This document shows positions 9,169-20,133 of a DNA stretch of 64,000 nucleotides, in pieces (positions within the stretch are counted from its first letter, which is position 1; every line of letters starts with the position of its first letter). Made by a program: the position numbers and the translations under genes. Location: NCBI RefSeq assembly GCF_055900595.2, contig NZ_CM148325.1, one strand, 5' to 3'. The notes beneath the pieces were generated by a model. That model was not told the origin of the DNA, did no database searches, and saw nothing but the letters and a program-made list of their open reading frames with translations.

Positions 9169-9202
9169 GCGAAACGGTGATTTGCTGACAATGTGCTCGT
9201 TG

Positions 9203-9306
9203 TTCATGCCGGATGCGGCGTGAACGCCTTATCCGGCCTACAAATTATTGCAAATTCAAGATATTGCAATCTCCGTGTAGGCCTGATAAGCGTAGCGCAT
9301 CAGGCA
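9203..9306. repeat. REP cluster (two inverted REP units) between glyA and yphH
   Basis: gccggatgcggcgtgaacgccttatccggcctac and gtaggcctgataagcgtagcgcatcaggc. Confidence 0.8.
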
Positions 9307-9365: not shown

Positions 9366-10559
9366 TCAAATCTGTCGTAACTGCGCCTCAACATACAAAT
9401 AGCCAATCCCCAGCACCTGCTGTGCGCGGCTTAATTGCCCAAAGCCAATTTGCGTCGATTTCACGCTCGGTCCTTCGTCACGGTCGAACGGGTTAAATCC
9501 TGTCTGGCGAATAATGGAATTAAGCCAGTTCTCACCAAAGGCGCAGCTGCGACCATACAGCCAAATCTGATTAATATTGAGGATGTTGAGGAAGTTATAC
9601 AGACTCAAACCAATGGCGTTGGCACTGCGGTCAACCCAGCTGGTGATCCACGGTTCTCCACTCTGCCAGGCAGCGATTAATTGTGCGGTTGTCAATTTTT
9701 CAGGATCAAGCTGAGTATTCACCGGTTGTGATTTTAGCCATACTCGCGCCTGTTTTTTTAATGCGCTTAACGAGGCGACGGTTTCCAGGCAGCCATAATG
9801 TCCGCAGTCGCAGACGACACCATCCGGATTAACGATGGTGTGACCAATCTGTCCGCTACCATACAAACTGCCGCGATAAATTTGCTCGTTAATCACGAAC
9901 GACGAGCCAATACCGTAATCAACGTTGATCACGCAGAAATCCCGTCCTTGCGAATTATTTTGCCATTTCTCCGCCAGCGCCAGCATCACGCAGTCATTAT
10001 CGACCATCACCCGAATGCCCAGCTTCTCTTCCAGCAGATACTTCACCTCAACCGGCGTTGTCCACGGCGCTTGCGGCATGGTTTGCGACACGCCAGTCAC
10101 TGGATCAACCTGACCGTGGATTGCCAGCGCCAGGTTGATAGTACGGTCCGGCCACAGTTTACGATGACGATGCCAGCATTTTTCGATTTCGGACAACAGA
10201 GCCTGCGGTGTCGGTGCATCAATCTGAAAATACTCAAATTCGCCTTTCGGACTTAAACAGGCATTAGCGACCTGACACTCAATGCTGGTGGGCGTCACGT
10301 TCAGGCACAGCGTCCAGTCACCTTCCGGCGCGATCAGCCATGTACCGCTACTGTGCCCGCGCGTCTGGCTTTCATCGTCGATATTCACCACCCGTTTTTC
10401 GCTTTCCAGCTCCTGCAAAATATTACTGACTGCCGGAATCGAAATTTGCGCCAGCCGGGCCAGCGTTGATTTATTGGCGCGCTTTTGCCGGTACAGCAGT
10501 TCCAGAATCACGCATTTGTTATGGTGGCGAATCTGTTGATTATTAATGCAGGCTCTCAT
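9366..10559 (-). CDS. yphH: ROK-family (NagC/Mlc-like) transcriptional regulator
   Basis: 397 aa from the ATG at 10559 (the GTG two codons upstream is an alternative); N-terminal HTH and ROK sugar-kinase-like fold with the CDCGHYGC zinc motif. Confidence 0.85.
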   Translation of the reverse strand: MRACINNQQIRHHNKCVILELLYRQKRANKSTLARLAQISIPAVSNILQELESEKRVVNIDDESQTRGHSSGTWLIAPEGDWTLCLNVTPTSIECQVANACLSPKGEFEYFQIDAPTPQALLSEIEKCWHRHRKLWPDRTINLALAIHGQVDPVTGVSQTMPQAPWTTPVEVKYLLEEKLGIRVMVDNDCVMLALAEKWQNNSQGRDFCVINVDYGIGSSFVINEQIYRGSLYGSGQIGHTIVNPDGVVCDCGHYGCLETVASLSALKKQARVWLKSQPVNTQLDPEKLTTAQLIAAWQSGEPWITSWVDRSANAIGLSLYNFLNILNINQIWLYGRSCAFGENWLNSIIRQTGFNPFDRDEGPSVKSTQIGFGQLSRAQQVLGIGYLYVEAQLRQI

Positions 10560-10676
10560 CTTCACTAAACCTTGTTTAGTTAATTGCGTGATTATTCCGC
10601 GAAAACATTGCCAGATTGTTCAATACACTGCCACAAATCTTTTAATTCAGTATGTCTTGTTAATATTGAGGGCACC

Positions 10677-13600
10677 ATGACTCCAGTAAAAGTGTGGCAA
10701 GAGCGCGTTGAGATCCCGACTTATGAAACAGGTCCGCAGGATATACACCCTATGTTCCTGGAAAATCGCGTTTATCAGGGATCGTCCGGTGCGGTTTATC
10801 CCTACGGCGTGACCGATACGCTGAGCGAGCAGAAAGTCCTGAAATCCTGGCAAGCGGTGTGGCTGGAAAACGACTATATCAAAGTGATGATCCTGCCGGA
10901 GTTGGGCGGTCGGGTGCATCGCGCTTGGGATAAAGTGAAACAGCGCGATTTTGTCTATCACAATGAAGTCATTAAACCGGCGCTGGTGGGGCTGCTGGGG
11001 CCGTGGATCTCTGGCGGGATTGAGTTTAACTGGCCACAACACCATCGCCCAACCACCTTTATGCCCGTCGATTTCACCATCGAAGCCCATGAAGACGGCG
11101 CACAAACTGTGTGGGTTGGCGAAACGGAGCCGATGCACGGTTTACAGGTGATGACCGGTTTCACACTACGCCCTGACAGGGCGGCGCTGGAGATTGCCAG
11201 CCGCGTCTATAACGGCAATGCCACGCCGCGTCATTTCTTGTGGTGGGCCAACCCGGCAGTGAAAGGTGGCGAAGGGCATCAGAGCGTTTTCCCGCCGGAT
11301 GTAACGGCGGTGTTTGATCACGGCAAACGGGCTGTTTCAGCTTTCCCTATCGCTACCGGCACTTACTACAAAGTGGACTACTCCGCCGGAGTGGATATTT
11401 CTCGCTATAAAAATGTGCCAGTGCCGACTTCGTATATGGCCGAAAAATCGCAGTACGATTTTGTTGGCGCATGGTGTCACGATGAAGATGGCGGTTTGCT
11501 ACACGTTGCCAACCACCACATCGCGCCAGGTAAAAAACAGTGGAGCTGGGGACACAGTGAATTCGGCCAGGCGTGGGATAAGAGCCTGACCGACAATAAC
11601 GGCCCGTATATCGAACTGATGACGGGTATTTTTGCCGATAACCAGCCCGATTTTACCTGGCTTGATGCTTACGAAGAGAAGCGTTTCGAGCAGTATTTCC
11701 TGCCTTATCATTCTCTGGGCATGGTGCAAAACGCCTCCCGCGATGCGGTGATTAAACTCCAGCGTAGCGAGCGGGGGATTGAGTGGGGGCTGTATGCCAT
11801 CTCCCCGTTGAAAGGATGCCGCCTGGCGATCCGCGAAATCGGCAAATGCAACGCGTTGCTCGACGATGCCGTGGCTCTGACGCCAGCGACCGCCATTCAG
11901 GGCGTGTTGCATGGTATCAATCCTGACAGACTAACCATTGAACTCTCCGATGCCGATGGCAATATCGTACTGAGTTATCAGGAACATCAGCCACAAGAGT
12001 TGCCGTTGCCGGACGTCGCCAAAGCGCCACTGGCAGCACAAGAGATTACCAGTACAGATGAAGCCTGGTTTATCGGTCAGCATCTGGAGCAATATCATCA
12101 TGCCAGCCGTTCCCCCTTCGATTACTACCTGCGCGGCGTGGCGCTGGACCCGCTGGATTATCGCTGTAACCTGGCGTTGGCGATGCTGGAATATAACCGC
12201 GCCGACTTCCCGCAAACGGTGGCGTATGCCACTCAGGCGCTAAAACGCGCACATGCGTTGAACAAAAACCCGCAGTGCGGACAGGCGAGTTTAATTCGCG
12301 CCAGTGCTTACGAACGTCAGGGGCAATATCAACAAGCCGAAGAGGATTTCTGGCGTGCGGTCTGGAGCGGAAACAGTAAAGCCGGTGGCTATTATGGTCT
12401 GGCACGGCTGGCGGCGCGTAATGGTCACTTCGACGCGGGTCTGGATTTTTGCCAACAAAGTCTTCGCGCCTGCCCAACCAATCAGGAAGTGCTTTGCCTG
12501 CATAACCTGCTGCTGGTGTTAAGTGGTCGTCAGGACAACGCGCGTTTGCAGCGAGAGAAGTTGCTGCGTGATTATCCGCTGAACGCCACTCTGTGGTGGC
12601 TGAACTGGTTCGATGGTTGTAGCGAATCTGCCCTCGTACAGTGGCGAGGTCTGTGTCAGGGACGCGACGTTAACGCTCTGATGACCGCCGGGCAACTGAT
12701 TAACTGGGGCATGCCCGCTCTGGCGGCAGAGATGCTGAACGCACTGGACTGTCAGCGCACGCTACCGCTTTACCTGCAAGCCAGTTTGCTGCCAAAAGCT
12801 GAACGCGGAGAACTGGTCGCAAAAGCTATTGATGTCTTCCCGCAGTTTGTCCGTTTCCCTAATACGCTGGAAGAAGTGGCGGCGCTGGAGAGTATCGAAG
12901 AGTGCTGGTTTGCCCGGCATTTACTGGCCTGTTTCTACTACAACAAACGCAGCTACGGCAAAGCAATTGCCTTATGGCAACGTTGCGTTGAGATGTCGCC
13001 GGAGTTTGCCGACGGATGGCGTGGGCTGGCAATCCATGCGTGGAATAAGCAGCATGATTATGAACTGGCTGCGCGTTATCTTGATAATGCTTATCAACTT
13101 GCGCCGCAGGATGCACGTTTGCTATTCGAACGGGATTTGCTGGATAAGTTAACCGGTGCTGCACCAGAAAAACGTCTGGCGCGTCTGGAAGCTAATCTGG
13201 AAATCGCCCTGAAGCGTGATGACATGACCGCAGAATTGCTCAATTTGTGGCATCTCACTGGTCAGGCCGACAAAGCGGCAGAGATTCTCGCCACGCGTAA
13301 ATTCCATCCGTGGGAAGGCGGAGAAGGGAAAGTCACCAGTCAGTTTATCCTCAACCAGTTGTTACGCGCCTGGCAATACCTTGATGCCAGACAACCGCAG
13401 CAGGCCAGCGAACTGCTTCATGCCGCGCTGCACTATCCGGAGAATTTAAGCGAAGGCCGTTTACCGGGGCAAACTGACAACGACATCTGGTTCTGGCAGG
13501 CGATATGTGCCAAAGCCCAGGGCGATGAAACTGCAGCGACGCGTTGTTTACGTCTGGCGGCGACGGGTGATCGCACCATTAACATCCACAGTTATTACAA

Positions 13601-13958
13601 CGATCAACCGGTTGATTATCTCTTCTGGCAAGGGATGGCGTTGCGATTACTGGGCGAACAACAAACCGCACAGCAACTGTTTAGTGAAATGAAACAGTGG
13701 GCGCAAGAGATGGCGAAAACCAGTATCGAAGCGGATTTCTTTGCCGTCTCGCAGCCTGACTTGTTGTCGCTGTATGGCGATTTACAACAGCAGCATAAAG
13801 AAAAATGCCTGATGGTGGCGATGCTGGCGGCCGCGGGATTAGGCGAGATTGCGCAATACGAATCTGCTCGCGCTGAATTGACGGCGATTAATCCGGCCTG
13901 GCCGAAAGCGGCATTACTCATCACCGTGATGCCTTTTATTTTTAGCTACGTTCACTAA
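10677..13958 (+). CDS. yphG: large cytoplasmic protein with TPR-like repeats (YphG family), function unknown
   Basis: 1093 aa from the ATG at 10677 with GAGGG ribosome-binding site; the ORF-track TTG at 10584 adds 31 residues with no support; no signal peptide; TPR-like helices in the C-terminal half. Confidence 0.85.
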   Translation: MTPVKVWQERVEIPTYETGPQDIHPMFLENRVYQGSSGAVYPYGVTDTLSEQKVLKSWQAVWLENDYIKVMILPELGGRVHRAWDKVKQRDFVYHNEVIKPALVGLLGPWISGGIEFNWPQHHRPTTFMPVDFTIEAHEDGAQTVWVGETEPMHGLQVMTGFTLRPDRAALEIASRVYNGNATPRHFLWWANPAVKGGEGHQSVFPPDVTAVFDHGKRAVSAFPIATGTYYKVDYSAGVDISRYKNVPVPTSYMAEKSQYDFVGAWCHDEDGGLLHVANHHIAPGKKQWSWGHSEFGQAWDKSLTDNNGPYIELMTGIFADNQPDFTWLDAYEEKRFEQYFLPYHSLGMVQNASRDAVIKLQRSERGIEWGLYAISPLKGCRLAIREIGKCNALLDDAVALTPATAIQGVLHGINPDRLTIELSDADGNIVLSYQEHQPQELPLPDVAKAPLAAQEITSTDEAWFIGQHLEQYHHASRSPFDYYLRGVALDPLDYRCNLALAMLEYNRADFPQTVAYATQALKRAHALNKNPQCGQASLIRASAYERQGQYQQAEEDFWRAVWSGNSKAGGYYGLARLAARNGHFDAGLDFCQQSLRACPTNQEVLCLHNLLLVLSGRQDNARLQREKLLRDYPLNATLWWLNWFDGCSESALVQWRGLCQGRDVNALMTAGQLINWGMPALAAEMLNALDCQRTLPLYLQASLLPKAERGELVAKAIDVFPQFVRFPNTLEEVAALESIEECWFARHLLACFYYNKRSYGKAIALWQRCVEMSPEFADGWRGLAIHAWNKQHDYELAARYLDNAYQLAPQDARLLFERDLLDKLTGAAPEKRLARLEANLEIALKRDDMTAELLNLWHLTGQADKAAEILATRKFHPWEGGEGKVTSQFILNQLLRAWQYLDARQPQQASELLHAALHYPENLSEGRLPGQTDNDIWFWQAICAKAQGDETAATRCLRLAATGDRTINIHSYYNDQPVDYLFWQGMALRLLGEQQTAQQLFSEMKQWAQEMAKTSIEADFFAVSQPDLLSLYGDLQQQHKEKCLMVAMLAAAGLGEIAQYESARAELTAINPAWPKAALLITVMPFIFSYVH

Positions 13959-14054
13959 ACACTATTAACTGTAATATTTGAGCGGCACGCGCTGCCGCTC
14001 ACGCTCAAATAATTAAAATAAGCCGTTGTAAATAAAAACCCTACAGGAGGCACT

Positions 14055-15038
14055 ATGCCTAAAAAAATGAGAACAACCCGTAATCTATTATTAATGGCTA
14101 CGCTATTAGGTAGCACACTATTTGCCAACGCTGCGGAAAAAGAAATGACCATTGGTGCAATATACCTTGATACCCAGGGATATTACGCTGGAGTGCGCCA
14201 GGGCGTTCAGGATGCGGCAAAAGATTCTTCAGTACAGGTACAGTTAATTGAAACTAACGCCCAGGGCGATATTTCGAAAGAAAGTACCTTTGTTGATACC
14301 CTCGTGGCGCGTAATGTCGATGCCATTATTTTGTCGGCAGTGTCTGAAAATGGCAGTAGCCGCACCGTTCGCCGCGCCAGTGAGGCGGGTATTCCGGTGA
14401 TTTGCTACAACACCTGTATTAATCAAAAGGGTGTCGATAAATATGTCTCGGCATATCTGGTTGGCGATCCGCTGGAATTTGGTAAAAAACTGGGTAACGC
14501 TGCCGCCGATTATTTTATTGCTAACAAAATTGACCAGCCGAAAATTGCTGTCATCAATTGCGAAGCCTTTGAAGTTTGTGTGCAACGACGTAAAGGGTTT
14601 GAAGAAGTATTAAAAGCCCGCGTTCCCGGCGCGAAAATTGTCGCTAATCAGGAAGGGACTGTTTTAGATAAAGCGATTTCTGTTGGTGAAAAACTGATTA
14701 TCTCCACGCCAGATCTCAATGCCATTATGGGGGAATCGGGTGGAGCGACACTCGGCGCGGTAAAAGCGGTACGTAATCAAAATCAGGCTGGAAAAATTGC
14801 CGTTTTCGGTTCGGATATGACCACTGAAATTGCACAGGAACTGGAAAATAACCAGGTGCTGAAAGCGGTAGTGGATATTTCCGGTAAGAAAATGGGCAAT
14901 GCTGTTTTCGCGCAAACATTGAAGGTTATCAATAAACAAGCCGACGGTGAAAAAGTGATTCAGGTGCCAATCGATCTCTATACCAAAACGGAAGACGGTA
15001 AACAGTGGCTGGCAACGCACGTTGATGGTCTGCCCTAA
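14055..15038 (+). CDS. yphF: ABC transporter periplasmic sugar-binding protein
   Basis: 327 aa; signal peptide; periplasmic-binding-protein type I fold; AGGAGG ribosome-binding site. Confidence 0.88.
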   Translation: MPKKMRTTRNLLLMATLLGSTLFANAAEKEMTIGAIYLDTQGYYAGVRQGVQDAAKDSSVQVQLIETNAQGDISKESTFVDTLVARNVDAIILSAVSENGSSRTVRRASEAGIPVICYNTCINQKGVDKYVSAYLVGDPLEFGKKLGNAAADYFIANKIDQPKIAVINCEAFEVCVQRRKGFEEVLKARVPGAKIVANQEGTVLDKAISVGEKLIISTPDLNAIMGESGGATLGAVKAVRNQNQAGKIAVFGSDMTTEIAQELENNQVLKAVVDISGKKMGNAVFAQTLKVINKQADGEKVIQVPIDLYTKTEDGKQWLATHVDGLP

Positions 15039-15060
15039 TCGCTGATTCGCAGAGGTCCCT

Positions 15061-16572
15061 ATGTTCACGGCAACAGAGGCAGTTCCGGTAGCAAAAGTGG
15101 TGGCAGGAAATAAGCGTTACCCCGGTGTCGTTGCGCTGGATAACGTTAACTTCACGCTCAATAAAGGCGAAGTTCGCGCGCTGTTAGGTAAAAACGGTGC
15201 GGGAAAATCGACCCTCATTCGAATGCTTACCGGTAGCGAACGTCCGGATAGCGGTGATATCTGGATTGGCGAGACGCGACTGGAAGGCGACGAAGCTACG
15301 CTGACTCGCCGTGCCGCTGAACTGGGGGTACGCGCGGTTTATCAGGAATTAAGTCTGGTGGAGGGGCTGACGGTGGCGGAAAACCTCTGCCTCGGTCAGT
15401 GGCCCCGCCGCAACGGCATGATTGATTACCTGCAAATGGCGCAGGATGCCCAACGTTGCTTACAGGCGCTGGGCGTTGACGTTAGTCCTGAACAACTTGT
15501 TTCGACACTAAGCCCGGCGCAAAAGCAACTGGTGGAAATTGCGCGGGTGATGAAAGGCGAGCCGCGCGTGGTCATTCTTGATGAACCTACCAGTTCGCTT
15601 GCCAGTGCGGAAGTTGAACTGGTGATCAGCGCTGTGAAAAAGATGTCGGCACTGGGCGTGGCGGTGATTTATGTCAGCCACCGGATGGAAGAAATTCGCC
15701 GCATTGCCTCCTGTGCCACCGTTATGCGCGATGGTCAGGTGGCGGGCGATGTGATGCTCGAAAACACCTCTACGCATCATATTGTGTCGCTAATGCTCGG
15801 GCGCGATCACGTTGATATTGCGCCGGTTGCCCCTCAGGAAATTATGGATCAAGCCGTGCTGGAAGTCCGTGCGTTACGCCATAAGCCCAAGCTGGAGGAT
15901 ATCAGCTTTACGCTACGTCGCGGCGAAGTGCTCGGCATTGCTGGCCTGCTGGGGGCAGGGCGCAGTGAATTGCTGAAGGCGATTGTTGGGCTGGAGACGT
16001 ATGAACAGGGCGAAATTGTTATCAACGGCGAGAAAATCACGCGCCCCGATTACGGCGAGATGCTGAAACGCGGCATTGGCTATACGCCAGAAAACCGCAA
16101 AGAAGCGGGGATCATTCCCTGGCTGGGCGTTGACGAAAATACGGTACTGACCAATCGGCAAAAAATCAGCGCCAACGGTGTGCTGCAATGGTCCACCATC
16201 CGCCGCCTGACCGAAGAGGTGATGCAGCGGATGACGGTCAAGGCAGCCAGTAGCGAAACGCCTATTGGCACGCTTTCTGGCGGCAATCAGCAAAAAGTGG
16301 TGATCGGTCGTTGGGTCTATGCCGCCAGCCAGATTTTATTGCTCGACGAGCCAACGCGCGGCGTCGATATCGAAGCCAAACAGCAGATTTACCGTATTGT
16401 CCGCGAGCTGGCTGCCGAAGGGAAAAGCGTGGTGTTTATCTCCAGTGAAGTGGAGGAGTTGCCGCTGGTGTGCGACCGCATCCTGTTATTACAGCACGGT
16501 ACGTTCTCGCAGGAGTTTCACTCGCCGGTCAATGTGGATGAGCTGATGTCCGCCATTCTGTCTGTGCACTGA
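15061..16572 (+). CDS. yphE: ABC transporter ATP-binding protein with two fused nucleotide-binding domains
   Basis: 503 aa; Walker A GKNGAGKST and signature LSGGNQQK. Confidence 0.9.
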   Translation: MFTATEAVPVAKVVAGNKRYPGVVALDNVNFTLNKGEVRALLGKNGAGKSTLIRMLTGSERPDSGDIWIGETRLEGDEATLTRRAAELGVRAVYQELSLVEGLTVAENLCLGQWPRRNGMIDYLQMAQDAQRCLQALGVDVSPEQLVSTLSPAQKQLVEIARVMKGEPRVVILDEPTSSLASAEVELVISAVKKMSALGVAVIYVSHRMEEIRRIASCATVMRDGQVAGDVMLENTSTHHIVSLMLGRDHVDIAPVAPQEIMDQAVLEVRALRHKPKLEDISFTLRRGEVLGIAGLLGAGRSELLKAIVGLETYEQGEIVINGEKITRPDYGEMLKRGIGYTPENRKEAGIIPWLGVDENTVLTNRQKISANGVLQWSTIRRLTEEVMQRMTVKAASSETPIGTLSGGNQQKVVIGRWVYAASQILLLDEPTRGVDIEAKQQIYRIVRELAAEGKSVVFISSEVEELPLVCDRILLLQHGTFSQEFHSPVNVDELMSAILSVH

Positions 16573-16596
16573 TGAATTTTACCGAGGAACCTGAAG

Positions 16597-17595
16597 ATGT
16601 CTGCTTCGTCATTACCATTGCCGCAGGGCAAGAGCGTCTCGCTCAAACAATTTGTCAGTCGCCATATTAATGAGATCGGTTTGCTGGTGGTAATCGCCAT
16701 TCTTTATCTGGTCTTCTCCCTGAATGCGCCTGGCTTTATCTCATTGAATAACCAAATGAACGTGCTGCGCGATGCTGCCACCATCGGGATCGCCGCCTGG
16801 GCGATGACGCTGATTATTATCTCCGGTGAAATTGATGTCAGCGTTGGACCGATGGTGGCTTTTGTCTCGGTGTGCCTGGCATTTTTGCTGCAATTTAACG
16901 TTCCGCTGGCGATTGCTTGTCTGCTGGTGTTGCTGTTAGGCGCGCTGATGGGGACGCTGGCCGGCGTGCTGCGCGGCGTGTTTAACGTGCCCAGTTTCGT
17001 TGCCACGCTGGGGCTGTGGAGCGCCCTGCGCGGAATGGGGCTGTTTATGACTAACGCCCTGCCAGTGCCGATTGACGAAAACGAGGTACTGGACTGGCTG
17101 GGGGGACAATTTCTCGGTGTGCCAGTATCCGCGCTGATCATGATGGTGTTGTTTGCGCTGTTTGTGTTCATCAGCCGCAAAACCGCCTTCGGGCGCTCGG
17201 TTTTTGCTGTTGGCGGTAATGCGACGGCAGCGCAGTTGTGCGGTATCAACGTTCGTCGGGTGCGCATTCTTATTTTTACCCTTTCGGGATTATTAGCGGC
17301 GGTGACCGGCATTTTGCTGGCAGCTCGCCTCGGTTCTGGTAACGCAGGTGCGGCAAACGGTCTGGAGTTTGACGTCATCGCTGCGGTCGTGGTCGGCGGT
17401 ACGGCACTTTCCGGCGGTCGCGGTTCCTTGTTCGGTACGTTGCTTGGTGTGCTGGTGATTACGCTAATCGGTAACGGTCTGGTGTTGCTCGGGATTAACT
17501 CTTTTTTCCAGCAGGTGGTGCGCGGCGTCATCATCGTGGTGGCGGTTCTGGCGAATATCTTGCTGACCCAGCGAAGCAGTAAAGCGAAACGCTAA
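16597..17595 (+). CDS. yphD: ABC transporter permease (sugar/ribose-type)
   Basis: 332 aa, hydrophobic multi-span protein. Confidence 0.88.
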   Translation: MSASSLPLPQGKSVSLKQFVSRHINEIGLLVVIAILYLVFSLNAPGFISLNNQMNVLRDAATIGIAAWAMTLIIISGEIDVSVGPMVAFVSVCLAFLLQFNVPLAIACLLVLLLGALMGTLAGVLRGVFNVPSFVATLGLWSALRGMGLFMTNALPVPIDENEVLDWLGGQFLGVPVSALIMMVLFALFVFISRKTAFGRSVFAVGGNATAAQLCGINVRRVRILIFTLSGLLAAVTGILLAARLGSGNAGAANGLEFDVIAAVVVGGTALSGGRGSLFGTLLGVLVITLIGNGLVLLGINSFFQQVVRGVIIVVAVLANILLTQRSSKAKR

Positions 17596-17660
17596 ACCTT
17601 AACGCCCCTGGCGCGGGTGCGGCAGGGATGAAAATTAATCGTATTGTTAATGAGGGAATT

Positions 17661-18722
17661 ATGAAAACGATGCTGGCAGCTTATTTACCAGGAAATTCGA
17701 CCGTCGATCTGCGGGAAGTTGCGGTGCCGACACCGGGGATTAACCAGGTACTGATTAAAATGAAATCCTCCGGGATTTGCGGAAGCGATGTCCACTATAT
17801 CTATCATCAACACCGCGCCACAGCGGCGGCTCCCGATAAACCGTTATACCAGGGATTTATCAACGGTCATGAACCGTGCGGGCAAATTGTGGCGATGGGG
17901 CAAGGTTGTCGCCATTTTAAAGAGGGCGACCGCGTGCTGGTGTATCACATTTCTGGCTGTGGTTTTTGCCCGAACTGCCGTCGCGGTTTTCCTATCTCTT
18001 GTACTGGCGAAGGAAAAGCCGCTTACGGCTGGCAGCGTGACGGCGGTCATGCCGAATACCTGCTGGCGGAAGAAAAAGATCTGATCCTCCTGCCGGACGC
18101 GCTGAGCTATGAAGATGGTGCGTTTATCAGTTGCGGCGTTGGTACAGCGTATGAAGGGATTTTGCGCGGCGAAGTTTCCGGCAGTGATAACGTGCTGGTG
18201 GTCGGTCTGGGGCCGGTCGGGATGATGGCGATGATGCTGGCGAAAGGTCGCGGTGCAAAAAGGATCATCGGCGTTGATATGCTGCCGGAACGTCTGGCGA
18301 TGGCGAAACAGTTAGGGGTGATGGATCACGGCTATTTAGCAACGACCGAAGGTCTGCCGCAGATTATCGCCGAACTCACCCACGGTGGCGCGGATGTTGC
18401 GCTCGATTGTTCCGGTAATGCCGCAGGTCGCTTACTGGCGTTGCAATCCACTGCTGACTGGGGACGGGTGGTTTACATCGGGGAAACCGGAAAAGTGGAG
18501 TTCGAGGTTAGCGCTGATCTGATGCATCATCAACGGCGGATTATTGGCTCCTGGGTGACCAGTCTGTTCCATATGGAAAAATGCGCCCACGATTTAACGG
18601 ACTGGAAACTGTGGCCGCGTAATGCCATTACCCATCGCTTCTCACTGGAACAGGCAGGAGATGCCTATGCGCTGATGGCGAGCGGTAAATGCGGGAAAGT
18701 TGTGATTAACTTCCCGGATTAA
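17661..18722 (+). CDS. yphC: zinc-dependent alcohol/polyol dehydrogenase (MDR family)
   Basis: 353 aa from the ATG at 17661 with GAGGGAA ribosome-binding site; zinc ligands GICGSD...GHE; Rossmann GLGPVG. Confidence 0.88.
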   Translation: MKTMLAAYLPGNSTVDLREVAVPTPGINQVLIKMKSSGICGSDVHYIYHQHRATAAAPDKPLYQGFINGHEPCGQIVAMGQGCRHFKEGDRVLVYHISGCGFCPNCRRGFPISCTGEGKAAYGWQRDGGHAEYLLAEEKDLILLPDALSYEDGAFISCGVGTAYEGILRGEVSGSDNVLVVGLGPVGMMAMMLAKGRGAKRIIGVDMLPERLAMAKQLGVMDHGYLATTEGLPQIIAELTHGGADVALDCSGNAAGRLLALQSTADWGRVVYIGETGKVEFEVSADLMHHQRRIIGSWVTSLFHMEKCAHDLTDWKLWPRNAITHRFSLEQAGDAYALMASGKCGKVVINFPD

Positions 18723-18733
18723 GGAGTCAGCGG

Positions 18734-19606
18734 ATGACCATCTATACCTTATCTCACGGGCCGCTAAAGCTGGACGTTTCTGACCGGGGCGGCGTCATCG
18801 AAGGCTTCTGGCGTGACGCGACGCCGCTCTTACGTCCCGGTAAAAAAAGCGGTGTGGCAACCGATGCCTCTTGTTTTCCGCTGGTGCCGTTTGCAAACCG
18901 GGTGAGCGGCAACCATTTTGTCTGGCAGGGGCGTGAGTATCAACTGCAACCGAATATTGAATGGGATGCGCACTATCTGCACGGCGACGGCTGGCTGGGC
19001 GAGTGGCAATGTGTCTCGCGCAGCGATGAAAGCTTGTGTCTGGTATATGAACATCGCACAGGTATTTATCAGTATCGGGTAAGTCAGGCGTTTCATTTAA
19101 CGGCAGATACGCTGACGGTGACGCTCTCTGTCACCAACCAAGGGACAGAGACGCTGCCATTTGGTACCGGCTGGCATCCTTATTTTCCGTTGTCACCACA
19201 AACGCGGATTCAGGCGCAGGCGAGCGGTTACTGGCTGGAGCGGGAGCAGTGGCTGGCGGGTGAGTTTTGCGAGCAGCTACCGCAGGCGCTGGATTTCAAC
19301 CAGTTCGCGCCGTTGCCGCACCAGTGGGTGAACAATGGCTTTGCCGGATGGAATGGTCAGGCCCGCATCGAGCAGCCGCAGGAGGGTTACGCTATCACTA
19401 TGGAAACGATGCCGCCCGCGCCGTGCTATTTCATCTTTGTCTCCGACCCCGCGTTTGATAAAGGGTACGCGTTTGATTTCTTCTGTCTGGAGCCGATGAG
19501 TCATGCGCCGGATGACCATCATCGCCCGGAAGGGGGTGATCTCATTGCGCTTGCGCCGGGGGAATCAACAACCTCAGAGATGTCGTTGCGGGTGGAGTTG
19601 CTGTAA
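18734..19606 (+). CDS. yphB: aldose 1-epimerase (mutarotase) family protein
   Basis: 290 aa; sits at the end of the sugar-uptake operon. Confidence 0.85.
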   Translation: MTIYTLSHGPLKLDVSDRGGVIEGFWRDATPLLRPGKKSGVATDASCFPLVPFANRVSGNHFVWQGREYQLQPNIEWDAHYLHGDGWLGEWQCVSRSDESLCLVYEHRTGIYQYRVSQAFHLTADTLTVTLSVTNQGTETLPFGTGWHPYFPLSPQTRIQAQASGYWLEREQWLAGEFCEQLPQALDFNQFAPLPHQWVNNGFAGWNGQARIEQPQEGYAITMETMPPAPCYFIFVSDPAFDKGYAFDFFCLEPMSHAPDDHHRPEGGDLIALAPGESTTSEMSLRVELL

Positions 19607-19613
19607 TTTATAA

Positions 19614-19706
19614 AATGCCTGATGCGACGCTTGCCGCGTCTTATCAGGCCTACAATCGGTGTTGGAACGGTAGGCCGGATCTGGCGTTCACGCCGCATCC
19701 GGCATC
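19614..19706. repeat. REP cluster between yphB and yphA
   Basis: tgcctgatgcgacgcttgccgcgtcttatcaggcctaca and gtaggccggatctggcgttcacgccgcatccggca. Confidence 0.8.
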
Positions 19707-19710
19707 TTTC

Positions 19711-20133
19711 CTAACGTCGATCGAGAGAAATCGCTCCAGGCCCGGTAATTGCCAACAGCAGGAATGCGCCAGCGATACTGACATTCTTCCAGAAATTAAT
19801 CATATTTGGCCCAACCGCATCGCCGGTCATATCCCAGTAATGGTGACCAATCACCGCCGTACCCAGCGTGTAGAAAATAAACAGCACCGCCAGCGGACGG
19901 GTGAAAAAGCCAAGCACGATTAAAATCGCGGCGGGCACTTCCATAACTACCGCAATAATCGCTGCCAGCATCGGCATTGGCGCGCCCAGCGAGGCCATAT
20001 ATTGGACCGTACCGTCAAAGCCCATCATTTTGGGAAAACCAAAAATAATGAAAATTAAGACCACGGCGATACGGGCAATTAATAACAAAACGGGGCGGGC
20101 AGCACCAAAATCAAAATAACGTAGTGTGTTCAT
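19711..20133 (-). CDS. yphA: DoxX-family inner-membrane protein
   Basis: 140 aa from the internal ATG (MNTLRYFDF); four hydrophobic segments. Confidence 0.8.

Follow-up and report, generated by a model that had tools for sequence, protein, structure and literature searches.

YphG, a probable new carbohydrate-processing enzyme of mutarotase fold, in the conserved yph sugar-uptake locus of Escherichia coli

The yph region of E. coli is best explained as a sugar uptake and catabolism operon controlled by YphH, in which YphG, a cytoplasmic protein of ~1,090 residues, would be the key glycoside-cleaving enzyme; we give this explanation a probability of about 0.45. Since members of the YphG family adjoin galactose-releasing enzymes in many bacteria, YphG is probably a new carbohydrate-processing enzyme, and on our best reading it would cleave a small galactose-type glycoside. 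The family (DUF5107 plus TPR) is widespread, large and unstudied.

The locus was analysed within a window of 64,000 nt (NCBI RefSeq assembly GCF_055900595.2, contig NZ_CM148325.1). A first-pass annotation made from the letters alone had described a ROK regulator gene, yphH, divergent from yphG-yphF-yphE-yphD-yphC-yphB; this layout was confirmed, with all seven genes where they had been placed and all seven reading frames intact (Table 1). Alternatively, yphH may be read as a longer GTG ORF reaching 10565. The divergent yphH-yphG intergenic region (10560-10676) measures 117 bp, and the successive spacings downstream of yphG are 96, 22, 24, 32 and 11 bp.

Table 1. Genes, protein domains and candidate regulatory elements of the yph locus (positions in the window).
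Feature	Position	Strand	Description
yphH	9366-10559	-	397 aa; ROK-family transcriptional regulator
O1, candidate YphH operator (TTCACTAAACCTTGTTTAGTTAAT)	10561-10584	.	24 bp; yphH-yphG region
Invariant block ATTGCGTGA	10583-10591	.	next to O1; columns invariant in all 14 genera
Possible yphG -10 element TACACT	10624-10629	+	TAnACTGCC conserved in most genera of alignment A2
yphG	10677-13958	+	1093 aa
yphG N-terminal domain	10677-11711	+	residues 1-345; mutarotase-fold supersandwich, putative catalytic core
yphG second beta-sandwich domain	11712-11996	+	~residues 346-440; from secondary structure of the model
yphG TPR-like alpha-solenoid	12054-13958	+	residues 460-1093
Terminator-like hairpin and T-run	13910-13943	+	inside yphG 3' end; from consensus scan only
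O2, candidate operator (TTCACTAAACACTATTAACTGTAA)	13951-13974	.	24 bp; overlaps yphG stop codon
9-bp GC-rich hairpin (TGAGCGGCA-N5-TGCCGCTCA)	13979-14001	+	conserved, between yphG and yphF
yphF	14055-15038	+	periplasmic sugar-binding protein, CUT2 type
yphE	15061-16572	+	503 aa; fused double ABC ATPase, two ABC halves
yphD	16597-17595	+	ABC permease
yphC	17628-18722	+	Zn-dependent MDR dehydrogenase
yphB	18734-19606	+	aldose-1-epimerase family protein

All NCBIfam matches of the Yph proteins lie far under the equivalog cut-offs, and the family assignments nonetheless hold. YphH matches NagC (5.9e-32) and Mlc (3.4e-31, residues 9-334) and carries the ROK zinc motif CDCGHYGC at residue 250. It has been called uncharacterised (PMC4288165, PMC9308461) and assigned to a small ROK branch of its own, with an atypical linker motif, that differs from NagC, Mlc and XylR (PMC4288165). 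YphF is best matched by AlsB (3e-18), MglB (5e-16) and RbsB (8e-15), each under its cut-off, and in the PDB by 5hsg (2.4e-24). YphE matches AraG, XylG, AlsA and MglA-like proteins (E 1e-136 to 1e-124), with a Walker A motif at residue 43 and LSGGN at residue 405, while YphD is RbsC- and AraH-like (E 1e-66). YphC, whose matches to Tdh (2e-50) and IolM (1.5e-49) both fall under the cut-off, has all its motifs in place (C51, GHE at residue 80, the structural Cys4 site at 111-125 and GLGPVG at 193), and YphB, with the motifs HGDGW, GWHPYF and CLEPM, is PDB 3NRE (match 2.6e-197), annotated as an aldose 1-epimerase. These assignments support the earlier view of the gene content as a regulator-controlled sugar uptake and catabolism operon; in agreement with the same annotation, no substrate assignment was found in the literature searched.

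YphG matches Pfam DUF5107 (residues 39-324, E 2e-55) and TPR_16. The suggestion that its N-terminal domain might be a glycoside hydrolase or lyase did not hold: no GH or PL match was found in Pfam or NCBIfam, nor is such a domain recognisable, and the AF2 model (pLDDT 94.7, pTM 0.93) instead predicts an aldose-1-epimerase (mutarotase) fold, like that of YphB. The presence of an enzyme-like fold, as predicted by this model, agrees with the rest of the earlier interpretation. Conservation is concentrated in this domain, where distant homologues share 49% identity vs 25% in the helical part and where 69 near-invariant positions are rich in His, Glu, Asp, Lys, Arg and Asn. The second beta-sandwich is poorly conserved (mean column identity 0.32), and the solenoid holds a few conserved polar residues (Q472, Y483, D491, W563, R782, E818 and E880), among them the invariant R782, together with the PWEGGEG motif. 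By motif comparison, IELM...NQPD of YphG parallels the catalytic-Glu motif CLEPM..APD of YphB, and Asn192 seems to take the place of the acid His of mutarotases (found in GWHPYF of YphB); profile-profile alignment of YphG with mutarotases reached a probability <1% and confirmed no residue mapping.

At 50% identity and E<=1e-30 the family falls into 1143 clusters, most of them full length, from Proteobacteria, Bacteroidota, Firmicutes and Bifidobacterium. Gene neighbourhoods were compared in 80-85 loci, which are the best tblastn matches and not a random sample. Out of 85 loci, 60 had a transporter within 6 kb of YphG, 60 an AraC or ROK regulator nearby and 31 an MFS sugar porter directly adjoining, which MelB-like carriers replaced in three loci. 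At least one GH2 was found in 34 loci and any galactose-linked gene (BT4151-like GH2, GH35, GH36, GH97, GalM or MelB) in 46; the galactosidases GH2, GH35, GH36 and GH97, as well as GalM and MelB, adjoin YphG in other phyla. A YphB-type or GalM mutarotase occurred in 24 loci and DUF4432-like proteins in 3 more. YphH orthologues are divergent from YphG in 16-18 loci, and YphF orthologues were seen only in a few Enterobacterales loci. The conserved core of the system is thus a regulator, YphG, a sugar-porter MFS and a mutarotase; the ABC transporter and the zinc dehydrogenase are outside it, and the E. coli locus, which has no MFS gene, is a derived variant. Minimal modules, for example AraC-MFS-YphG and ROK-YphG-MFS-YphB, contain no kinase, and neither a kinase nor an aldolase is found in the conserved modules.

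Because TPR solenoids are typical protein-protein interaction modules, YphG could instead be a non-enzymatic scaffold or sensor, its mutarotase-like domain binding sugar and its solenoid contacting YphH or the AraC regulator, the transporter or metabolic enzymes so as to modulate induction or channel substrate. The near-constant company of a regulator and a transporter and the apparent loss of the acid His would fit such a role. We consider it quite improbable, since the partner regulators come from two unrelated families, each with its own ligand-binding domain, the minimal three-gene modules would then have no enzyme whatever, and the dense invariant charged residues of the N-terminal domain, together with the invariant polar residues of the solenoid, are more typical of an active site. 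The scaffold role is also opposed by apparently secreted members of the family: signal-peptide-like N-termini, judged by a hydrophobicity heuristic rather than a dedicated predictor, were found in 22 of 89 full-length distant representatives, and one distant relative carries a CBM9-like module as a fusion (E 5e-8). This combination is a signature of carbohydrate-active enzymes, not of isomerases or regulators.

Whether the substrate is a glycoside or a free sugar is a closer matter. To our knowledge, no glycoside hydrolase or lyase has a mutarotase-fold catalytic domain, and this fold normally binds free reducing sugars; both main classes of transporter in these loci, the XylE-like sugar porters and the CUT2 ABC systems, typically take up monosaccharides. 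YphG might therefore act on a free galacto-configured monosaccharide (D-galactose, L-arabinose, D-fucose or a related rare sugar) as an isomerase, epimerase or ring-form converter, the sugar being scavenged or released by neighbouring galactosidases, imported by monosaccharide-class transporters and its product passed to housekeeping pathways. Monosaccharide pathways classically pair their first enzyme with a mutarotase (galM, fucU, rhaM, rbsD), and the YphG-linked MFS proteins, 45-57% identical between Klebsiella and Bacteroidota, suggest one conserved small solute. YphG is cytoplasmic in Bacteroidota, where its GH2, GH35, GH97 and GH36 neighbours carry signal peptides, an arrangement that a free monosaccharide fits just as well as a glycoside. 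We nonetheless judge action on a free sugar unlikely. The missing kinase and aldolase speak against it, a monosaccharide isomerase would hardly be expected to have a secreted subfamily or a CBM9-like fusion, and the galactose and arabinose pathways are already complete in E. coli. Moreover, the GH2 and GH35 operon partners in Firmicutes are cytoplasmic, which implies import of a glycoside; in the YphG-GH35-GH2-MFS operon of Bacillus sp. REN16 both GH35 and GH2 are without signal peptide, so that the MFS must import a glycoside.

Under the preferred reading, glycoside cleavage, a small galacto-configured glycoside would be captured by YphF, imported by YphE/YphD and cleaved by YphG at the anomeric carbon, in an active site formed by the supersandwich with the TPR solenoid as a cap. 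YphB would equilibrate the anomers of the released sugar, and YphC would oxidise the released polyol, the aglycone or the sugar itself. Repression would be exerted by YphH, bound to a 24-bp operator at the yphH/yphG promoter and before yphF, and would end once YphH binds the sugar or a product.

The candidate for this operator is a duplicated, conserved DNA motif, matched 2-3 times in the window vs 0.05 expected. O1 forms the inverted repeat ACTAAAC-N3-GTTTAGT in E. coli, scores 31 bits with the PWM and belongs to a block that alignment A2 shows to be conserved in 14 genera, ranging from E. coli to Aeromonas. O2 scores 27.5 bits and fits the degenerate motif exactly; only ABC-type loci have a second site, namely those of E. 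coli and E. albertii (28.5 bits) and, with a weak match, that of Budvicia. The invariant block beside O1 may be a promoter element or the site of a further regulator, and TACACT is a possible -10 element of yphG; no consensus sigma-70 promoter was found in 10400-14200.

The palindrome noted earlier between yphG and yphF is real and consists of two nested perfect inverted repeats at 13975-14011, the outer of which is strain-specific. O2, which the first-pass annotation had missed, lies immediately upstream of it. The intergenic region is single-copy per genome and its RNA fold has z = -2.3; the 9-bp hairpin is conserved across four genera. A role in transcript processing or attenuation is no more than plausible, given that E. 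coli has no U-tract after the stem and that a single base pair, compared in five sequences, provides the covariation. Alternatively, the palindrome may be a protein-binding site at the DNA level or a relic of cassette insertion, which would suit the lack of a U-tract and a hairpin beginning 5 bp downstream of the second operator-like motif; 7 of the 9 pairs never vary in alignment A4, leaving RNA pairing putative. This seems somewhat unlikely, as the stem is retained around a freely varying loop, the closing pair changes among AU, GU and CG, of which the G-U form suits RNA and not DNA, and in relatives the stem is followed by part of a U-run (GTTTC, GTTTTC). The terminator-like hairpin within yphG is a weak candidate, because seven such sites occur in the region vs 4.0 expected.

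That E. coli keeps the locus as an evolutionary remnant, now silent or in decay, deprived of its original MFS transporter and with no current physiological role, appears very improbable. The MFS partner of its relatives has left no remnant within the window, a consensus promoter is lacking, YphG is truncated or split in some strains (L007, 841 + 244 aa; P0003; P0030; P0049) and no published phenotype was found in the literature searched. Against this, the locus belongs to the species core as a single copy, being found in 5425 of 5426 complete E. coli genomes and covered to at least 80% of its length in 5370, mostly at 95-99% identity; its reading frames are intact and its regulatory motifs are conserved across genera. 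Furthermore, YphF protein has been detected, with levels ~3- to 4.6-fold higher on levoglucosan than on fructose in an engineered strain (PMC8753852).

Compared with known systems, YphG differs from the aldose 1-epimerases (GalM, YeaD, YphB) in giving no Pfam Aldose_epim match, in its apparent Asn for His replacement and in its added beta-sandwich and 630-residue TPR solenoid, which make it three to four times larger. PDB 5CD6 (BDI_1685 of Parabacteroides distasonis, a structural genomics entry) has 580 aa, half the size of YphG, and in the alignment differs from the family at several invariant residues (H122, R124 and the NQPD motif); its molecule name, 'TPR-domain containing protein', gives no function, and no paper on it was found. 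In GH15, GH65 and PL8/PL15/PL17 enzymes, too, a beta-supersandwich is joined to a large alpha-helical domain, and YphG resembles them in having conserved residues in both parts. Their catalytic residues are located in an (alpha/alpha)6 toroid, whereas conservation in YphG is concentrated in the sandwich and its helices match open TPR solenoids. YphH shares with NagC, Mlc and XylR an HTH region at the N-terminus, which aligns to Mlc, as well as the ROK domain, the zinc motif, a divergent gene arrangement and a pseudo-palindromic candidate operator, but scores only 111 bits against the NagC cut-off of 650 and 109 against the Mlc cut-off of 530. YphF/E/D have the cluster-B binding protein, fused double ATPase and RbsC-type permease of CUT2 importers (rbsACB, alsBAC, mglBAC, araFGH, ytfQRT-yjfF) but reach no equivalog cut-off. 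Finally, melR-melAB is a unit of regulator, transporter and glycosidase, which the minimal YphG modules resemble; lacI-lacZYA is built likewise, and yihQ-yihR joins a glycosidase to a mutarotase. Like these systems, YphG modules have a divergent sugar-responsive regulator, one transporter and one large cytoplasmic enzyme; they lack a kinase and often include a mutarotase. YphG differs from the glycosidases of those systems in not being a GH4, GH36, GH2 or GH31 protein, in matching no CAZy-type Pfam family by sequence and in its mutarotase-fold core.

The yph locus is an already known but uncharacterised set of y-genes, and its existence is not new. It sits between glyA and yphA/hca and is annotated in RefSeq as yphH (ROK family), yphG (DUF5107 domain protein), yphF, yphE, yphD, yphC and yphB. 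The ORF positions agree with the first-pass annotation, which had yphH diverging from yphG-yphB, and the description given there is largely right; the genes downstream of yphG follow at spacings of 96, 22, 24, 32 and 11 bp. The 10.2-kb stretch was matched in 5425 of 5426 complete E. coli genomes, always on the chromosome, and at least 80% of it was covered in 5370. Disrupted copies of yphG are found: strain SCPM-O-B-8794 (locus L007, 2379-5657) encodes it in two pieces of 841 and 244 aa, and the truncated database proteins P0003, P0030 and P0049 measure 955, 741 and 643 aa. Because such split or truncated copies occur in some strains, yphG must be inactivated now and then, while the species overall retains the gene; that the locus is a decaying remnant in E. 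coli is, in our judgement, very improbable. Sub-threshold Rfam matches to naRNA4 and ES036, which we take to be REP-derived palindromes, flank the locus at 9187-9238 (-), 9242-9284 (+) and 19562-19718 (both strands), on one side between glyA and yphH and on the other between yphB and yphA; those downstream of yphB occupy the place of an MFS gene in related genera.

Features of the yph locus and of the YphG model (nucleotide positions unless residues are indicated)
Feature	Position	Remark
yphH	9366-10559	minus strand
yphG-F-E-D-C-B	10677-19606	plus strand
Divergent yphH/yphG intergenic region	10560-10676	
Inverted repeat, candidate operator O1	10561-10584	in E. coli; left part of the conserved block
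-10-like TAnACTGCC	10624-10632	conserved in most genera of the 14-genus alignment
Terminator-like hairpin followed by TTTTATTTTT (T-run)	13910-13943	within the final 50 nt of the yphG reading frame
Candidate operator O2	13951-13974	yphG/yphF junction
Inner stem TGAGCGGCA-N5-TGCCGCTCA	13979-14001	9-bp perfect stem, 5-nt loop, GC-rich
YphG model domain 1	residues 1-345	beta-rich
YphG model domain 2	residues about 350-435	small beta-sandwich
YphG model domain 3	residues 460-1092	all-helical

The locus can be classed as a sugar operon headed by an enzyme family whose chemistry is uncharacterised, and within the E. coli core genome it counts among the sugar systems still without an assignment. A catabolic sugar-uptake gene content had been proposed for it, and NCBIfam confirmed the families, with motifs intact, at the family level only, since the matches of all yph proteins fell far under any equivalog cut-off. 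YphFED constitute a CUT2 ABC importer set according to NCBIfam, with a type-I periplasmic binding protein (YphF, nearest models AlsB, MglB and RbsB), a fused double ATPase (YphE, Walker A at residue 43 and signature LSGGN at residue 405) and an RbsC/AraH-like permease (YphD). By the equivalog cut-offs, this importer fits no CUT2 substrate subfamily among ribose, allose, galactose, xylose, arabinose, AI-2 and galactofuranose; for example, AlsB reached 66 of the 335 bits needed and MglB 59 of 420. YphC is a Zn-dependent MDR dehydrogenase carrying C51, GHE at 80-82, the structural Cys4 motif CGFCPNCRRGFPISC at 111-125 and a Rossmann GLGPVG at 193. Its nearest NCBIfam models are Tdh and IolM, its best PDB relatives are a generic ADH, xylitol DH and Tdh (~1e-36), and it did not reach any of the substrate classes considered (Tdh, IolM, GatD, IdnD etc.; 171 versus 380 bits for Tdh, 169 versus 450 for IolM). 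YphB corresponds to the structural-genomics entry PDB 3NRE, annotated as an aldose 1-epimerase (E 2.6e-197, residues 1-289), and carries the predicted His/His/Glu catalytic motifs HGDGW, GWHPYF and CLEPM.

We found no published substrate assignment for the yph system, as the first-pass annotation had also stated, in a search that left most subscription journals outside; the searchable literature likewise returned no functional study of yph genes, DUF5107/PF17128, 5CD6 or BT4151. YphF was about 3- to 4.6-fold up in a levoglucosan proteomics study (PMC8753852). The mention of yphE/yphF in an Ensifer paper is an annotation list only, and yphG has found use in PCR as a marker specific to Klebsiella pneumoniae (PMC10569728).

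In Pfam, YphG comprises DUF5107 at residues 39-324 (E 2e-55) and TPR_16 repeats. Its only solved relative is 5CD6, a 580-residue structure named "TPR-domain containing protein", and all of its neighbours in AFDB50 are DUF5107 or TPR proteins without a name. An AlphaFold2 model built from an alignment of 71 full-length homologues, with identity down to 27%, had a pLDDT of 94.7 and a pTM of 0.93. In this model the N-domain is predicted to adopt the supersandwich fold of aldose 1-epimerases and the C-terminal region forms tandem helix-turn-helix repeats, that is, a TPR-type solenoid. This predicted structural identity, a mutarotase fold joined to TPR in a high-confidence model, is new here. The modelled fold is enzyme-like, a point on which the first-pass annotation had staked its reading beforehand, but the glycoside hydrolase or lyase raised there as a question for the N-domain gives way to a mutarotase fold, which is not known as a catalytic fold of hydrolases or lyases. 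YphG matched none of the established CAZy GH/PL families by sequence or by catalytic-domain fold, nor was there a match to Pfam PF01263 (aldose epimerase).

Conservation was concentrated in the N-domain, where mean column identity was 0.60 and 69 positions were at least 90% conserved, including E116, N118, H122, H123, R124, H215, K286, K287, D306, E313, N322, Q323 and D325. Distant homologues shared 49% identity with E. coli YphG in the N-domain versus 25% in the solenoid, which keeps an invariant R782 and a PWEGGEG motif (E880). From this pattern, it looks as if the sandwich and the solenoid together build a common active site. The competing view that YphG is a non-catalytic sensor or scaffold has to be set beside the same pattern, and we hold it to be improbable. 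Mapping of catalytic residues by profile-profile comparison (hhalign) of the N-domain with the YphB and GalM families gave probabilities below 1% and was unusable. At the level of motifs, IELM...NQPD of YphG parallels the catalytic-Glu motif CLEPM..APD of YphB, so that E313 may match the base Glu. At the position of the acid His of YphB (H148, GWHPYF), YphG has WWANPAV with N192, which makes a plain mutarotase unlikely.

Searched exhaustively, 1.84 billion representative proteins yielded 5612 matches at E<=0.001, among them 1143 YphG clusters at E<=1e-30. Most of these clusters measure 1,050-1,150 residues and align over their full length. When a single genome was scanned for each species, at least 597 YphG loci were recovered. 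The best 80, which were retained, come from the Proteobacteria side (Enterobacterales, Aeromonas, Photobacterium), from many Bacteroidota (Mucilaginibacter, Sphingobacterium, Prevotella, Parabacteroides, Zobellia, Maribacter), from Firmicutes (Paenibacillus, Bacillus, Lachnospiraceae, Ruminococcaceae) and from Bifidobacterium. Signal-peptide-like N-termini were present in 22 of 89 full-length distant representatives. Two homologues with such N-termini carry additional C-terminal domains, namely a CBM9-like carbohydrate-binding module in P0258 (1417 aa, E 5e-8) and an Exo_endo_phos domain in P0204 (1399 aa, E 5e-19). The size and spread of the family and its apparently secreted and CBM-fused relatives are new here. 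A single paper in the searched literature mentions DUF5107: in its ortholog-group table, from a comparison of marine stramenopile (MAST) genomes, DUF5107 is listed as "unknown function" with high indicator values, and its neighbours in the table are mostly labelled as digestive enzymes (PMC8163842).

We called ORFs around YphG in 86 loci and clustered them by BLASTP, both in a crude way, and annotated neighbour representatives with NCBIfam, Pfam and precomputed Pfam tables; these loci are the best matches and not a random sample. Within 6 kb of YphG, 60 of 85 loci encoded some transporter and the same number an AraC-type or ROK regulator. An XylE-like MFS sugar porter or a MelB-like carrier, the latter scoring over the MelB cut-off, was present in 50 of the 85, at least one GH2 in 34, and a YphB-type or GalM mutarotase in 24, with DUF4432-like proteins in three more. 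Any galactose-linked gene, a set comprising BT4151-like GH2, GH35, GH36 (Melibiase), GH97-type retaining alpha-galactosidase, GalM and the MelB-like carrier, was found in 46 of 85. The commonest direct neighbours were MFS (31), AraC (29), GH2 (21) and ROK (16). In B. thetaiotaomicron, BT4151 itself belongs to the RG-I locus and acts in the periplasm as an exo-beta-1,4-galactosidase (PMC8002723). Klebsiella and Bacteroidota share 45-57% identity in the MFS that accompanies YphG (L003, L014, L020, L036, L038 and other loci), compared with about 40% in YphG, suggesting either one shared solute under strong constraint or co-transfer of the MFS and YphG as a pair. The consistent association of YphG with galactosidases, mutarotases and a conserved sugar porter is new here.

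Some loci have a composition of their own. Eight loci of marine Flavobacteriia (L020, L036, L038, L040, L054, L056, L058, L076) share a block of sulfatase (in most), MFS, GDSL-type acylhydrolase (240 aa), BT4151-like GH2 and YphG, and in most of them further sulfatases and a second GH2 lie downstream. On a Ruminococcaceae metagenome contig (L088, 9165-17840), YphG is followed by Metallophos, a 401-aa protein, Zn-ADH, Mannitol_dh, Amidohydro_2, a beta-helix protein and a GH29 fucosidase-family protein. The trio of ADH, lactonase-family protein and Mannitol_dh recalls the published L-galactose/L-galactonate route, and this single locus is suggestive of an L-galactose pathway. In two Firmicutes loci YphG is followed by a small protein (cluster c83) that was considered as an RbsD/FucU-type mutarotase; it weakly matched the ureidoglycolate lyase family PF04115 instead.

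Comparison with close relatives indicates that E. coli carries a derived ABC/dehydrogenase variant of the system, which had not been recognised before. The arrangement ROK < YphG > MFS > YphB, without ABC transporter or dehydrogenase, occurs in Aeromonas, Klebsiella oxytoca, Serratia, Citrobacter, Cedecea and Hafnia, and the Klebsiella oxytoca module occupies the same glyA-yphA site as E. coli yph. In Enterobacter sp. BIGb0383, Enterobacteriaceae bacterium RIT691 and Budvicia diplopodorum the order is ROK < YphG > SBP-ATPase-permease-ZnADH-YphB-MFS, and E. coli and E. albertii have this order minus the MFS; tblastn detected no remnant of a lost MFS gene within the window. The ABC-ZnADH-YphB block looks like a separately acquired cassette, because E. 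coli YphB is only 30-33% identical to YphB from MFS-type loci. The conserved part of the system is YphG, not the ABC transporter or the dehydrogenase.

YphH has the architecture of a ROK repressor, an N-terminal HTH followed by a ROK domain, with the Mlc model aligning at residues 9-334 and the NagC model at 118-341, and it contains the ROK zinc motif CxCGxxGC as CDCGHYGC at residue 250. Its scores remained under the NCBIfam equivalog cut-offs (NagC 111 versus 650 bits, Mlc 109 versus 530 bits), and Pfam assigns a weak MarR plus ROK to its Aeromonas orthologue. It has been described as the third ROK repressor of E. coli, one not yet characterised (PMC4288165), and in 2022 was still counted among the E. 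coli transcription factors of unknown function (PMC9308461).

When the yphH-yphG intergenic region was aligned across 14 genera, a conserved block emerged at 10564-10591, within which ATTGCGTGA is invariant even in Aeromonas. A hairpin at the candidate YphH operator O1 that would sequester the yphH ribosome-binding site was considered and discarded: the repeat is perfect only in Escherichia and the sequence block is kept elsewhere. Since the inverted repeat is not retained outside Escherichia though the block is conserved, a DNA site is favoured at O1. A degenerate pattern derived from O1 matched, in the 64-kb window, only O1 itself (both strands) and 13953-13973, against 0.05 matches expected. 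This second candidate, O2, overlaps the yphG stop codon and scores 27.5 bits with a PWM that gives O1 31 bits. A second PWM site was found only in ABC-cassette loci (E. coli, E. albertii and, weakly, Budvicia), which suggests that the cassette may be under separate control of the same regulator, presumably YphH. The duplicated candidate operator is a new observation. No consensus sigma-70 promoter was found in 10400-14200, which fits a weak or activator-dependent promoter. A CRP site at ATTGCGTGA was rejected: the left half CGTGA fits and its centre lies near -41.5 from the guessed -10, but the right half is CGCGA (yGCrw across genera) and not TCACA. At 10583-10603 and in the orthologous regions, many genera have a second ATTGCG-like word 11 bp downstream, by ATTGCGTGA; the one-helical-turn direct repeat of K. 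oxytoca (TATTGCGTGAGCATTGCGCA) is an example.

The palindrome between yphG and yphF had been read as a signal for transcript processing or attenuation, and this reading is plausible. The GC-rich stem-loop is real and its inner stem is retained in E. coli, E. albertii, Enterobacter sp. BIGb0383 and Enterobacteriaceae bacterium RIT691, with varying loops and a closing pair that is AU, GU or CG; the outer repeat is strain-specific. On the other side, E. coli has no U-tract after the stem (CACGCTCAAAT), relatives have only GTTTC or GTTTTC, the terminator scan skips the hairpin, and covariation was not significant among five sequences with seven invariant pairs (90 of 500 shuffles reached the observed score). 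The intergenic region is single-copy (median 1 place per genome, highest 2) and lacks an Rfam match, so that a REP/BIME or other dispersed repeat and a known RNA were both discarded. It is plausible that the hairpin acts as a partial terminator or 3'-end stabiliser uncoupling yphG from yphF-B. The terminator-like hairpin at the end of yphG lies directly upstream of O2 and of the conserved hairpin.

We propose that YphG-type proteins (DUF5107 + TPR, ~1,100 residues) form a new class of carbohydrate-active enzymes, in which a TPR solenoid would cap a catalytic centre of aldose-1-epimerase fold. Their substrate would be a galactose-type glycoside left by the known GH2, GH35, GH36 and GH97 enzymes, which they would cleave or change in some other way at its anomeric carbon. 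The members of this class, secreted and CBM-fused ones included, would range from E. coli, as part of the core genome, through Firmicutes and Bifidobacterium to the polysaccharide-utilisation loci of Bacteroidota; we give this proposal a probability of about 0.4. By association, a galacto-configured sugar is the most likely, of the D-galactose type and possibly of the L-arabinopyranose type. Gut, soil and marine bacteria carry the family in their galactoside-utilisation loci. If YphG does cleave glycosides with a mutarotase scaffold, carbohydrate enzymology would gain a catalytic fold, and a missing step in the final breakdown of galactose-containing glycans by gut Bacteroidota and Firmicutes would be supplied.

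Two readings of the reaction compete, each compatible with most of the data. That YphG acts on a free monosaccharide agrees with its mutarotase fold, with the monosaccharide classes to which sugar porters and CUT2 ABC systems belong, and with the Bacteroidota loci, where the neighbouring GH2, GH35, GH97 and GH36 all have signal peptides and YphG never does; we consider this rather unlikely. Cleavage of a small glycoside, which we favour over it and place just short of even odds, is supported by the minimal modules AraC-MFS-YphG and ROK-YphG-MFS-YphB, which have no kinase, and by secretion and CBM fusion, as expected of a glycan-active enzyme. It is also supported by the YphG-GH35-GH2-MFS operon of Bacillus sp. 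REN16, in which both glycosidases lack a signal peptide and the MFS must therefore import a glycoside. The Mgl system, related to YphFED, carries methyl- and glyceryl-galactosides. Glycoside cleavage would give each E. coli yph gene a role: YphFED would import the glycoside, YphG would cleave it, YphB would equilibrate the anomers and YphC would oxidise the released polyol or sugar. The kinase-free YphG modules resemble melR-melAB or lacIZY-type units, and those with YphB are like other systems in which a mutarotase lies beside a glycosidase, such as yihQ-yihR.
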